Shown piece after piece: positions 27,513-37,438 of a DNA stretch of 64,000 nt. Below the pieces are notes generated by a model. It was not told where the DNA came from, did not search any database, and saw only the letters and a list, made by a program, of their open reading frames with translations. Position 1 is the stretch's first letter, and each line of letters opens with the position of its first letter. Made by a program: the position numbers and the translations under genes. The DNA comes from Chlamydiota bacterium (lineage in GTDB: Bacteria; Chlamydiota; Chlamydiia; Chlamydiales; JABHNK01): positions 310 through 64,309 of the forward strand of contig JBNJDP010000003.1 in the NCBI GenBank assembly GCA_051744985.1, in the 5' to 3' direction.

Positions 27513-29128
27513 GAAACACCCCCACGTGCGTGGGGAAACCCTTATCAAGGTCGAACTCTTTCCCATCTCTGGAGAAACACCCCCACGTGCGTGGGGAAAC
27601 CTCGGTGGGAATAAGCCTTCGGCTTTCGAAAGTAGAAACACCCCCACGTGCGTGGGGAAACCAAAAGTTCTACAACAAAAATTTACAGAAGAAAGGAAAC
27701 ACCCCCACGTGCGTGGGGAAACCTTCCTGTAATAAGAGCAATTTCCAAAGAGGTTAGAAACACCCCCACGTGCGTGGGGAAACCAGAAGAATAACTATAT
27801 TATAACATAATTATACAGAAACACCCCCACGTGCGTGGGGAAACCAGAAGAATAACTATATTATAACATAATTATACAGAAACACCCCCACGTGCGTGGG
27901 GAAACCGCCAAGCGAGTAACTGTGCTCAATAGAATTTGGGAAACACCCCCACGTGCGTGGGGAAACCTCAGCCTTTGAAGATGGACGTTCGATTTATGGA
28001 GGAAACACCCCCACGTGCGTGGGGAAACCTCGTAGTTAACAAGAACGCCCTAGGGCAGTGGAGAAACACCCCCACGTGCGTGGGGAAACCTGAGGAGCCC
28101 TGTAGAGTCGATATCCAGGCGGCGAAACACCCCCACGTGCGTGGGGAAACCCAACGGGTCAGAAAGTGTTATGAGCGCTTTACGGAAACACCCCCACGTG
28201 CGTGGGGAAACCTCTTCTACAGATGTCCAAGGGGCTATCGATGAGGAAACACCCCCACGTGCGTGGGGAAACCCGTAACGTGGGGGCGCGATGCAAGGGC
28301 AGAAAGGAAACACCCCCACGTGCGTGGGGAAACCATTTGGGGAAACGCTGAAGGTCTTTGGCGGTTAGAAACACCCCCACGTGCGTGGGGAAACCTGCCC
28401 TTGTCGATGTTTACCGTTGCTATTATGAGAAACACCCCCACGTGCGTGGGGAAACCCAGGAATTACACTAAGGATATCAAGCGCCATAGAGAAACACCCC
28501 CACGTGCGTGGGGAAACCAAGAACCAAGGCCGATATCCTCGACCTTGGCGAGAAACACCCCCACGTGCGTGGGGAAACCATCAAAATTTGGCGCTAGAAG
28601 CTATAAAAAGAGGAAACACCCCCACGTGCGTGGGGAAACCAGCTGTCGACGTTCTCTTGCCCTAGGGCGAGCGGAAACACCCCCACGTGCGTGGGGAAAC
28701 CGGGTATAAGGTGGAGAGAAGCACGTTAAAAATGGAAACACCCCCACGTGCGTGGGGAAACCCGGAGACCGTCACAACACGACAACAGAAGTGCGGAAAC
28801 ACCCCCACGTGCGTGGGGAAACCGGGAAAAAATACAGCGCACCTCTACCGTGCCCGGAAACACCCCCACGTGCGTGGGGAAACCGCCAGACTAGATCACG
28901 GCTTTCTTCATGAGATGGAAACACCCCCACGTGCGTGGGGAAACCATAAAAGCAGGGTGGCAGCTGCAACCCACGGTGGAAACACCCCCACGTGCGTGGG
29001 GAAACCGGAGACCGACGAAGAGCTAAGGGAGAGGCGCAAGAAACACCCCCACGTGCGTGGGGAAACCATGGAAAGTTATGGACTTTGAGCCACAGAAGAA
29101 GAAACACCCCCACGTGCGTGGGGAAACC
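27513..29128 (-). CRISPR. Type I-E CRISPR array: 27 identical 28-nt repeats and 26 spacers
   Basis: The plus-strand repeat GAAACACCCCCACGTGCGTGGGGAAACC starts at 27513 and then every 61 nt, with two 62-nt steps before the repeats at 28002 and 28491. The last repeat is 29101-29128. In the minus orientation it reads GGTTTCCCCACGCACGTGGGGGTGTTTC. That is a 5-nt 5' flank, a 6-bp stem with a 4-nt loop, then a 7(+1)-nt 3' handle, matching the E. coli I-E repeat architecture and the strand of the cas operon. Confidence 0.97.
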
Positions 29129-29161
29129 TCTTAAAAATTATTTCAAAATAGCTTATATAAT
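29129..29161 (-). promoter_or_regulatory. Putative CRISPR leader remnant (AT-rich, only 33 nt between the cas2 stop and the first repeat)
   Basis: tcttaaaaattatttcaaaatagcttatataat lies between the cas2 TAA (29162-29164) and repeat 27. A functional leader or promoter would have to extend into the cas2 coding sequence. Confidence 0.4.
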
Positions 29162-29458
29162 TTATGGCTCAAAATTATCAATAATTTTTTCTTCTACTAA
29201 CTGCAAGCCGGAAATAGAGGTCAAAGAGCGCTTAGTATCCCCCAAGCTATAGATTGTAAAACCTGGAGGTTCTGGAATACGCTTAAAAACCATCACACCG
29301 CTAGATGGAGGACAGTATTTATGCAAATAATTGATCACTGTTTCTGCTACTGAATCTTTTATTCCAGAGACGAAAACGTTAGGTCTTGGTTCAACAAACC
29401 AAAGTTTCATACGTCCTCTCACAGCTGGAGGCAGGTCATTAGCGACTACTACTAACAT
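29162..29458 (-). CDS. cas2: CRISPR-associated endoribonuclease Cas2, I-E type
   Basis: MLVVVANDLPPAVRGRMKLWFVEPRPNVFVSG parallels E. coli YgbF ([31 protein letters not shown]). Its ATG overlaps the cas1 TAA by 1 nt (TAATG). Confidence 0.9.
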   Translation of the reverse strand: MLVVVANDLPPAVRGRMKLWFVEPRPNVFVSGIKDSVAETVINYLHKYCPPSSGVMVFKRIPEPPGFTIYSLGDTKRSLTSISGLQLVEEKIIDNFEP

Positions 29459-37389: not shown

Positions 37390-37410
37390 ATCTCGCCTCC
37401 TATATAAATT

Positions 37411-37438
37411 ATTATGCAGAGGGGATAAAATAGGTCAA
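37411..37438 (-). promoter_or_regulatory. Candidate sigma70-type promoter of the cas operon
   Basis: On the minus strand, TTGACC (37438-37433), a 16-nt spacer, then CATAAT (37416-37411). This sits about 22 nt upstream of the cas3 ATG at 37389, with the GGAGG SD between them. Confidence 0.35.

Follow-up and report, generated by a model that had tools for sequence, protein, structure and literature searches.

The type I-E CRISPR-Cas systems of Escherichia coli K-12, Thermobifida fusca and Thermus thermophilus are built from the same eight protein families as the locus described here. They likewise possess a Cas3 that combines HD nuclease and helicase, as well as Cas1e and Cas2e, and they share hairpin repeats with 8 nt past the stem and a repeat-spacer unit of about 61 nt. 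In E. coli-type loci, however, cas6e comes after cas7-cas5, whereas in our locus it lies ahead of both genes. The repeats also differ: the E. coli repeat ends ATAAACCG, while the 28-nt repeat found here ends GTGTTTC and is followed by a variable pyrimidine. Identity of the Cas proteins to solved I-E proteins is low to moderate.

CRISPR-Cas systems are nearly absent from obligate intracellular bacteria. Among Chlamydiota, a 2025 classification recorded them in 1 of 437 genomes (PMC12669027). Protochlamydia naegleriophila KNic (LN879502) and Diamant as well as P. massiliensis carry chromosomal I-E systems with 28-bp repeats and 33-bp spacers which, like ours, were deemed horizontally acquired and gave no spacer matches (PMC5010888, PMC5583166). 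Their arrays comprise 8 or 16 repeats (7 or 15 spacers; 8 repeats in KNic, PMC5010888), compared to 27 repeats and 26 spacers in our locus. The KNic genes are listed in the order cas7, cas5, cas6e as opposed to cas6e, cas7, cas5 here, and the closest relatives named for KNic, Anaeromyxobacter and Rhodothermus (PMC5010888), are not among the relatives of our locus. Further cases come from three GEM metagenome-assembled genomes (MAGs), namely 3300009084-150 (I-C), 3300012931-71 (I-C and I-E) and 3300013126-109 (I-E) (PMC8242063 supplement), and from the Rhabdochlamydiaceae MAG RhabSjap6 (10.1101/2023.03.17.533158). Like the host of our locus, these chlamydiae are uncultured, come from the environment and carry DNA-targeting systems of class 1; their arrays hold 6-50 spacers without known targets, and by number the spacers reported for chlamydial MAGs (6, 50 and 35) differ from our 26. 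The initial annotation of our locus is therefore outdated in naming P. naegleriophila as the sole chlamydial case. CRISPR-Cas in chlamydiae is rare but already published, and the 64-kb stretch of DNA analyzed here (the window) adds another case. The accessions of its proteins (MGM04396xx; MGM0439656-MGM0439665) seem recent, judging by the accession series.

Results

On the minus strand at 29162-37389, eight open reading frames encode cas3, cse1, cse2, cas6e, cas7, cas5, cas1 and cas2 in this order (Table 1). None contains an internal stop, in agreement with the colinear set of intact genes described in the initial annotation. Its assignment to type I-E was likewise confirmed, since two HMM libraries (NCBIfam and PADLOC) place all eight proteins in this subtype. 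In NCBIfam, each protein passes the curated cut-off of its I-E family, with Cas3 passing via cas3_core and cas3_HD; in PADLOC, an I-E model is the best hit for every protein but Cas2, for which generic Cas2 ranks first and Cas2e second. The locus contains a Cas3 with fused HD nuclease and SF2 helicase, the signature subunits Cse1/Cas8e and Cse2/Cas11e (recognized by both libraries), the Cascade backbone proteins Cas7e and Cas5e together with the repeat endonuclease Cas6e, the adaptation module Cas1e and Cas2e, and an adjoining array of I-E type (28-29-nt hairpin repeats, 32-33-nt spacers) in the sense of the cas genes. The order cse2-cas6e-cas7-cas5 deviates from the canonical E. coli arrangement, in which cas7-cas5-cas6e follow cse2, but gene order does not define the subtype and the order seen here is found in many proteobacterial I-E loci.

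Several of the proteins could be compared with solved structures. Cas3 (215.8 bits for cas3_core and 47.2 bits for cas3_HD, each exceeding its cut-off; PADLOC Cas3e 524 bits) aligns over its full length with 4Q2C/4QQW and retains the HD motif, Walker A (GVGKT), DEVH and the QRxGR motif. The C-terminal glycine-rich loop of Cas6e aligns with T. thermophilus Cse3, and Cas1 aligns over its full length to solved Cas1 structures. Identity to relatives is 72-74% for Cas1 and 67-68% for Cas2; Cas7 is identical to NCBI MGM0439660.1, with the best foreign matches at 77%. The starts of cse1 (34787), cas6e (32767), cas7 (32097) and cas1 (~30318) were revised by alignment with relatives; the cas1 frame reaches upstream to a TTG at 30348. 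AGGAG-type Shine-Dalgarno sequences had been ascribed to all eight genes, which stands for six (cas3, cse1, cse2, cas6e, cas7 and cas5) and probably for cas1, while the cas2 site is weak. A strong AGGAGG lies between the putative promoter and cas3, and the terminator-like hairpin after holB may mark the boundary of the inserted block on its upstream side.

Table 1. Coordinates of the CRISPR-Cas locus and adjoining features within the window
Feature	Position	Strand	Description
Eukaryote-like Ser/Thr kinase gene (downstream flank)	26279..27511	+	Convergent; stop 1 nt from last repeat
CRISPR array	27513..29128	-	27 identical 28-nt repeats, 26 spacers; leader-proximal end 29128
Duplicated repeat-spacer unit	27785..27878	-	Same AT-rich spacer (15% GC) at 27785-27817 and 27846-27878
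Leader, AT-rich	29129..29161	-	33 nt, cas2 stop codon to first repeat
cas2 (Cas2e, 98 aa)	29162..29458	-	TIGR01873 97.6 bits (cut-off 33)
cas1 (Cas1e, ~286 aa)	29458..30318	-	TIGR03638 325.8 bits (cut-off 215.6)
cas5 (Cas5e/CasD, 249 aa)	30296..31045	-	TIGR01868 177 bits (cut-off 69); PADLOC
cas7 (Cas7e/CasC, 349 aa)	31048..32097	-	TIGR01869 315 bits (cut-off 178)
cas6e (CasE, 213 aa)	32126..32767	-	TIGR01907 144.5 bits (cut-off 45)
cse2 (Cas11e/CasB, 171 aa)	32760..33275	-	TIGR02548 79.9 bits (cut-off 28.5); PADLOC Cas11e
cse1 (Cas8e/CasA, 495 aa)	33300..34787	-	TIGR02547 205.9 bits (cut-off 70); PADLOC Cas8e
cas3 (864 aa)	34795..37389	-	HD nuclease fused to SF2 helicase
Putative promoter TTGACC-16 nt-CATAAT	37411..37438	-	Upstream of cas3; consensus match only
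Terminator-like hairpin	37481..37496	-	Just past holB; consensus match only
holB (upstream flank)	37503..38591	-	Last gene of conserved chlamydial dciA-gyrB-gyrA-tmk-holB block

The array is highly regular. Its 27-nt core GAAACACCCCCACGTGCGTGGGGAAAC occurs 27 times without mismatch at 27513-29127 and not once in 100 shuffles. The invariant unit is 28 nt, reading GGTTTCCCCACGCACGTGGGGGTGTTTC in crRNA sense followed by a variable pyrimidine, and folds into a 7-bp stem with a 4-nt loop. The 27 perfectly identical repeats noted previously were thus recovered, although their period of 61 nt has two exceptions of 62 nt because two spacers are 34 nt long and the others 33 nt. Similarly, the count of 26 spacers holds but only 25 are unique. 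For the duplication, recombination, slippage or an assembly effect is a simpler explanation than two independent acquisitions. The terminal repeat shows no degeneracy and adjoins the stop codon of the neighboring kinase gene; together with the duplicated spacer, this suggests that the array has undergone rearrangement or deletion beyond orderly acquisition. We oriented the array by the 5 + 16 + 8 nt geometry of the repeat, the variable 29th base and the same-sense arrays after cas2 in relatives. In this orientation, 24 of the 25 unique spacers begin with a pyrimidine, as do the spacers of relatives. At 33 nt, the leader is about 20 nt shorter than gammaproteobacterial ones (~50-58 nt in relatives), though its repeat-proximal part is conserved in an alignment with L006 and L002, two of the relatives introduced below. 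No consensus promoter was found inside the leader. A TTGATA...TATATA-like pair, read by eye only, overlaps the end of cas2. Searching the window with Rfam at gathering thresholds returned two tRNAs only and no CRISPR-DR family.

The locus is embedded in a chlamydial chromosome, as had been proposed. The flanks carry a DPE2-type malQ, holB, tmk, gyrA, gyrB, a DUF721/DciA-like frame, PPi-PFK and Kdo transferase genes, so that the earlier list of neighbors was borne out. The dciA-gyrB-gyrA-tmk-holB block is syntenic with Parachlamydiaceae, the named matches of HolB are almost all chlamydial (45-48%), and the tetranucleotide signatures of the left and right flanks correlate at r = 0.94. Left and right flank are parts of the same chlamydial genome. 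No other database protein exceeds 48% identity to HolB, and GyrA and GyrB are 66-70% identical to those of Parachlamydiaceae, whose members share 80-83% with each other (against a Protochlamydia, HolB reaches 45% and GyrA 69%). Judging by these proteins, the host is a deep-branching uncultured member of the Chlamydiota from a lineage other than Protochlamydia. The earlier suggestion that this might be the P. naegleriophila locus or a close relative could thus not be upheld. Consistent with this, Protochlamydia Cas7 is absent from the best 120 Cas7 matches (at least 62% identity); the Protochlamydia locus itself was compared by its published description.

The sequence is present in a single MAG, which NCBI labels only 'Chlamydiota bacterium'. 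Exact look-ups of Cas2 and Cas7 on recorded contigs returned nothing, and a contig scan queried with Cas7 alone yielded no relative, which indicates that the MAG is not among the species representatives of GTDB. None of the three chlamydial relatives examined has cas genes after holB. We considered the gene that follows holB in P. phocaeensis as an empty-site partner, but it is not homologous to the kinase gene of the window; because the region after holB varies among relatives, a precise empty site cannot be defined.

The cas operon has a different affinity from its surroundings. The closest operons are gammaproteobacterial, with Cas7 73-77% identical, whereas Cas7 proteins from other phyla of the PVC group (Planctomycetota, Verrucomicrobiota and Lentisphaerota) reach only 40-57%. 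Apart from the window's own, no chlamydial Cas7 is found among the best 120 matches, and no chlamydial plasmid with a Cas7 of this type is among the matches listed in PLSDB. A proteobacterial I-E variant in which cas6e comes first shares our gene order and likewise places the array after cas2. Examples are a Thiomicrorhabdus chilensis MAG (L006), JGI and Logan contigs (L002-L005) and the Enterobacter asburiae plasmid pJBIWA002_1 (NZ_CP074179.1); the variant also occurs on Enterobacter, Klebsiella, Arsenophonus and Vibrio plasmids. Cas proteins of these relatives are 50-77% identical to ours, their spacers are similarly pyrimidine-first, and their repeat, GTCTTCCCCACGC(A/C)CGTGGGGGTGTTTC, is 2-3 nt off the window's. 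On the other hand, the 5' end of our repeat, GGTTT, occurs in none of the relatives' arrays inspected, the three closest loci have a WYL-domain regulator ahead of cas3 that is missing here, and the oligonucleotide signature of the window is chlamydial, unlike that of the relatives. The locus belongs to a sub-lineage marked by the order cas3-cse1-cse2-cas6e-cas7-cas5-cas1-cas2 and a 28-nt repeat ending GTGTTTC, whose other members come mostly from Proteobacteria and their plasmids. Given these relationships, the operon was probably acquired horizontally from proteobacteria.

A proteobacterial CRISPR-Cas contig misjoined into a chlamydial one during assembly or binning would also combine proteobacterial homologues with chlamydial flanks, and both the occurrence in one MAG only and the lack of exact repeat matches in JGI metagenomes would fit such an artefact. 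However, the tetranucleotide composition of the cas block resembles that of the flanks (r = 0.87-0.91) and not that of homologous operons (0.43-0.55). An artefact would require two misjoins because the block sits between flanks that correlate at r = 0.94, and since known relatives reach no more than 50-77% identity in the Cas proteins, there is no plausible contaminant donor on record. We therefore consider a misassembly extremely improbable.

Alternatively, the locus could be a recent import whose spacers were gathered in a proteobacterial donor and would be uninformative about the DNA met by its chlamydial host. The plasmid-borne variants in Enterobacterales, the somewhat lower GC3 of the cas genes (0.34, compared to 0.43 in flanking genes) and the identity of all repeats, including the terminal one, lend some support to this scenario. 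Yet codon frequencies of the cas genes, like their tetranucleotides, are closer to the host (correlation of 0.89 with flanks versus 0.78 with homologues). No IS, att, inverted-repeat or other flanking-repeat borders were found around the block, nor any mobility genes between the kinase gene and holB; a mobile island or plasmid-borne locus would be recognized by integrase, transposase, borders or foreign composition, none of which we observed, the composition being host-like. In addition, repeat, leader and regulator content have diverged from every relative seen, the nearest Cas7 is only 77% identical, and no spacer is shared with the relatives' arrays. Recent import is consequently unlikely. 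The host-like signature of the block, so unlike that of its homologues, points to a horizontal acquisition long ago and speaks against a chimera or a recent arrival.

The comparison of spacers with phages, plasmids and metagenomes suggested in the initial annotation yielded no protospacer. Spacers alone had no match in GenBank phages and only chance 22-24-mers in PLSDB plasmids (E = 0.3-4); matches of the whole array in phages and plasmids were driven by the repeat and led to other I-E arrays. Exact searches of IMG/VR with 14 spacers (queried as merged spacer pairs covering 12 spacers plus a 21-nt motif common to spacers 9 and 19) and of JGI metagenomes with two spacers (26 and 7) returned no matches. 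The same was true for the exact repeat in JGI metagenomes and for the repeat with a free loop in IMG/VR.

Because no protospacer was found, we can only infer that the system is active; recent activity is plausible from its sequence. It is possible that the retained system no longer adapts or defends, and that it persists as a silent relic or has been reused, for example in gene regulation. Obligate intracellular bacteria generally lose defense systems. The scarcity of CRISPR-Cas among Chlamydiota (1/437; PMC12669027), the searches without targets, the short leader, the missing WYL regulator and the duplicated spacer would all be compatible with such a fate. However, eight genes (~8.2 kb) have stayed open with their catalytic motifs kept over the time needed for amelioration, which implies purifying selection. 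The repeats are uniform, no spacer targets the 64-kb window itself at up to 10 mismatches, and cas3 is preceded by a promoter-like site and a strong Shine-Dalgarno sequence. We regard loss or replacement of the defensive function as unlikely, though less so than the other alternatives. Amelioration, intact genes and the first-base bias of the spacers together support long maintenance and adaptation within the lineage. We infer the latter since 24 of 25 unique spacers are pyrimidine-first and none is common to relatives' arrays; most likely, the 26 spacers were acquired within the chlamydial lineage from mobile DNA.

Discussion

We conclude with good confidence that the window harbors a complete, chromosomally integrated subtype I-E CRISPR-Cas locus of an uncultured, deep-branching member of the Chlamydiota, which was acquired horizontally and has long been resident. 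The cas block was probably inserted at the end of the dciA-gyrB-gyrA-tmk-holB block, where it has remained long enough to take on the oligonucleotide signature of its host.

Mechanistically, this is an ordinary I-E system, and by homology to those of E. coli and T. fusca we propose the following steps. Transcription of the array would start from the leader next to cas2 and proceed on the minus strand. Cas6e would then cleave at the 3' base of each repeat hairpin, releasing 61-nt crRNAs that carry the 8-nt handle GUGUUUCY at the 5' end and a hairpin at the 3' end. A Cascade composed of Cse1, Cse2, Cas7, Cas5 and Cas6e could locate PAM-flanked DNA and form an R-loop, followed by recruitment of Cas3 and degradation of the target. 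New 33-bp units are expected to be put in at the leader-proximal repeat by Cas1-Cas2.

No phage family other than the microviruses is known to infect chlamydiae. The gokushovirus genome PQ006273.1 contains one solitary copy of our repeat variant, the element GGUUUCCCCACGUAAGUGGGGGUGUUUCU, in crRNA sense on the coding strand; its stem and both flanks are identical to the repeat and only the loop is changed. One might envision an acquisition of the proteobacterial I-E system by this lineage that was independent of the one in Protochlamydia, followed by a long period of active adaptation against adversaries that include microviruses. We give this extended scenario only a slim chance; the PQ006273.1 element looks as an RNA anti-CRISPR decoy for Cas6e/Cascade would be expected to look. 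A solitary repeat-like sequence on Enterobacter IncFII plasmids, considered separately, proved to be an array remnant beside an IS fragment and not a decoy.

Finding 25 distinct spacers in an intact I-E system that is adapted to its host, in a chlamydial lineage unrelated to Protochlamydia, is further evidence that for some environmental chlamydiae the exposure to foreign DNA is high enough to keep adaptive immunity. It also suggests that free-living Proteobacteria have provided them with such immunity on more than one occasion. The spacers constitute a probe set for undiscovered phages and plasmids of environmental chlamydiae.

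The type I-E locus and its array

Eight open reading frames without internal stops lie upstream of the array (Table), and all score above NCBIfam curated cut-offs. PADLOC gave its I-E model as the best match for seven of them, while Cas2 matched a generic Cas2 model first and Cas2e second; the initial annotation of an intact type I-E system therefore holds. Mechanistically the system is standard among I-E systems and represents the proteobacterial cas6e-first variant. The HD and helicase motifs of Cas3 align with those of solved Cas3 structures, and Cas1 matches solved Cas1 over its full length. 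Six or seven of the eight genes have an AGGAG-type ribosome-binding site, not all eight as first proposed. Upstream of cas3 stand an AGGAGG site and a promoter-like TTGACC-16 nt-CATAAT, and a terminator-like hairpin lies just 3' of holB. No WYL-domain regulator was found anywhere in the 64-kb window, whereas the three closest relatives' loci carry one upstream of cas3.

Features of the locus and its surroundings
Feature	Position	Strand	Remarks
Three ORFs (1094, 1241, 876 aa)	10290-20277	minus	
90-nt tandem repeat	19664-19837		1.9 copies, in 876-aa ORF
454-aa ORF	24773-26137	minus	
Ser/Thr kinase	26279-27511	plus	MGM0439656
Repeat core, 27 copies	27513-29127		
Spacers	27541-29100		
Duplicated spacer	27785-27817, 27846-27878		
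Spacer 9 (plus-strand order)	28030-28062		
Spacer 19 (plus-strand order)	28641-28673		
Cas2e		minus	
Cas1e	start about 30318	minus	start reset by alignment with relatives
Cas5e/CasD		minus	
Cas7e/CasC	start 32097	minus	start reset likewise; MGM0439660
Cas6e/CasE	start 32767	minus	start reset likewise
Cse2/CasB		minus	
Cse1/CasA	start 34787	minus	start reset likewise
Cas3		minus	NCBIfam core and HD
HolB			MGM0439665
tRNA-Met (CAT)	49514-49588	minus	
tRNA-Met (CAT)	49643-49715	minus	
Microvirus repeat copy (L001, PQ006273.1)	1961-1989		position within L001, not the window; about 2712-2740 in the record

The array is real and lies where it was first placed: the core GAAACACCCCCACGTGCGTGGGGAAAC recurs with 0 mismatches and is absent from shuffled sequence. 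The 27 identical repeats and the 26 spacers stood, but the reported 61-nt period is 62 nt in two places and 25 spacers are unique, because one AT-rich spacer recurs. The invariant unit spans 28 nt, and spacers measure 33 nt (34 nt in two). In the cas-gene sense the repeat is GGTTTCCCCACGCACGTGGGGGTGTTTC plus a variable pyrimidine, and its predicted fold is a 7-bp stem closed by a 4-nt loop. Compared with the E. coli I-E repeat, its layout (5 nt, 6-bp core stem, 8 nt) has type I-E geometry. Relatives carry a near-identical repeat directly 3' of cas2 in the same sense; this placement and the geometry together indicate that the array is read on the minus strand, with its newest end at 29128. Only 33 nt of leader separate the cas2 stop from the first repeat; relatives have about 20 nt more, and the repeat-proximal portion aligns as conserved with theirs. 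The far end has no degenerate terminal repeat, leaves 1 nt between the array and the convergent kinase gene's stop codon, and looks trimmed.

Spacer GC shifts along the array: it is as low as 15-33% in some leader-distal, older spacers and rises to 58-64% in several of those near the leader, with the genome at about 42%. Such a drift hints at a change in the type of DNA sampled. Spacers 9 and 19 have in common a 12-nt stretch (CGCCCTAGGGCA or its reverse complement) centred on the palindrome GCCCTAGGGC; a common run of that length arose in 1 of 200 shuffles. Both may derive from one source element, or the palindromic motif may be a repeated one in an invader. A 21-nt pattern spanning the two had no match in IMG/VR.

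A single solitary copy of the repeat also occurs in Bajarodmic virus 175, a 4.7-kb gokushovirus-like microvirus from rodent faeces whose capsid is nearest to those of other gut or faecal gokushoviruses. It matches the window's repeat at 26 of 28 nt (BLAST E = 0.01), with both mismatches in the 4-nt loop and the stem and both flanks identical; the 5' GGTTT end is common to these two and absent from the relatives' arrays inspected. The copy sits between the pilot-protein and replication-initiator genes, on the coding strand in crRNA sense, and folds into a hairpin of the window's type. Solitary repeat units are the basis of the RNA anti-CRISPR concept, and to judge by its sequence this copy looks like such a unit, a candidate RNA anti-CRISPR.

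A separate chlamydial host

One NCBI MAG, 'Chlamydiota bacterium', has proteins identical to Cas7, HolB and the kinase, on a contig of 66,308 bp. Eight accession numbers separate the kinase from HolB, and we infer that this record includes protein calls for all eight cas genes. The flanks proved chlamydial, as initially described: three Parachlamydiaceae-type contigs show synteny over dciA-gyrB-gyrA-tmk-holB and have no cas genes after holB, and the named HolB matches listed belong to Parachlamydiaceae, Protochlamydia phocaeensis, Waddliaceae and Chlamydiales, with a MAG labelled Nitrosomonas as the sole exception. The suggestion that this is the Protochlamydia naegleriophila locus is rejected. 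HolB's next-best match among 5.8 billion proteins is only 48% identical. GyrA and GyrB share 66-70% identity with two Parachlamydiaceae, compared with 80-83% between those two; these gyrase distances therefore place the organism in a separate, deep chlamydial lineage.

The gene adjoining the array codes for a Ser/Thr kinase of the AGC family, eukaryote-like in type. Among 119 matches listed beyond its own record, every named one is eukaryotic (ribosomal S6 kinases, a ciliate kinase; 28-35% identity). The protein is a candidate host-derived effector. The frame stops where the AGC C-terminal tail would start, 1 nt from the last repeat, and is possibly 3'-truncated. Four further ORFs (1094, 1241, 876 and 454 aa), three of them very large, had no Pfam match at E <= 1e-5 and resemble typical lineage-specific chlamydial proteins. 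Two tRNA-Met genes, 54 nt apart, lie between genes for a UvdE-like endonuclease and Kdo transferase.

Origin and residence of the system

The best foreign Cas7 matches among those listed are 73-77% identical, and the named ones are Gammaproteobacteria (Methyloprofundus, Thiotrichales, Thiomicrorhabdus and a MAG labelled Francisella). No chlamydial Cas7 appeared among the best 80 species representatives, and those of other PVC-group phyla (Planctomycetota, Verrucomicrobiota, Lentisphaerota) reach only 40-57%. Gene order is the same in the closest loci (cas6e 5' of cas7, array 3' of cas2), their repeat differs at 2-3 positions, and their Cas proteins are 50-77% identical over all eight genes. 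Since the matches listed put Cas7 nearer to proteins of Gammaproteobacteria than to any from chlamydiae, the locus was probably acquired independently of the other chlamydial cases. The variant also occurs on Enterobacter, Klebsiella, Arsenophonus and Vibrio plasmids, so this I-E sub-lineage is mobile. On the Enterobacter asburiae IncFII plasmid pJBIWA002_1 (NZ_CP074179.1) an IS21 element interrupts its cas7; on related IncFII plasmids (CP033467.1) the array has been lost, and only a degenerate terminal repeat beside an IS fragment is left of it.

Foreign genes in a chlamydial contig could also reflect a chimeric assembly. By tetranucleotide signature the cas block resembles its flanks (r = 0.91 with the left, 0.87 with the right) as closely as sub-parts of the flanks resemble each other; the two flanks compared as wholes give r = 0.94. 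With the homologous proteobacterial operons, which match the signatures of their own hosts, the cas block reaches only 0.43-0.55. Codon frequencies agree (0.89 with flanks versus 0.78 with homologues), while GC3 is lower in the cas genes (0.34) than in the flanks (0.43). Neither border of the block shows insertion-sequence ends, att-like repeats or mobility genes. This composition reads as an old, ameliorated insertion, making a chimera very unlikely.

Activity of the system

We infer that the system is active, and recent activity is plausible on sequence grounds. About 8.2 kb of cas genes remain open with catalytic motifs kept after long residence, and the repeats are uniform. The first spacer base is a pyrimidine in crRNA sense in 24 of 25 unique spacers, and likewise in relatives, a bias of the type left by PAM-linked integration. 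Also in favour, none of the spacers recurs in the relatives' arrays and no self-target occurs within the window at <=10 mismatches. Against activity count the short leader, the absent WYL regulator, one duplicated spacer-repeat unit, the trimmed-looking distal end, and the lack of a protospacer match in any search, those of the large collections covering exact matches of 14 spacers in IMG/VR and of two in JGI metagenomes.

CRISPR-Cas in Chlamydiota

Protochlamydia naegleriophila was initially named as the one chlamydial case. Its strains KNic and Diamant carry a I-E system with 8 repeats of 28 bp and 33-bp spacers (PMC5010888), but published cases also include P. massiliensis (I-E, 15 spacers; PMC5583166), three chlamydial GEM MAGs (I-C and/or I-E, 6-50 spacers; PMC8242063, supplement) and a Rhabdochlamydiaceae MAG (10.1101/2023.03.17.533158). 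A 2025 classification lists a CRISPR-Cas locus in 1 of 437 Chlamydiota genomes (PMC12669027). Chlamydial CRISPR-Cas is thus rare yet already published, and the present locus adds one more instance, from a lineage distinct from these.
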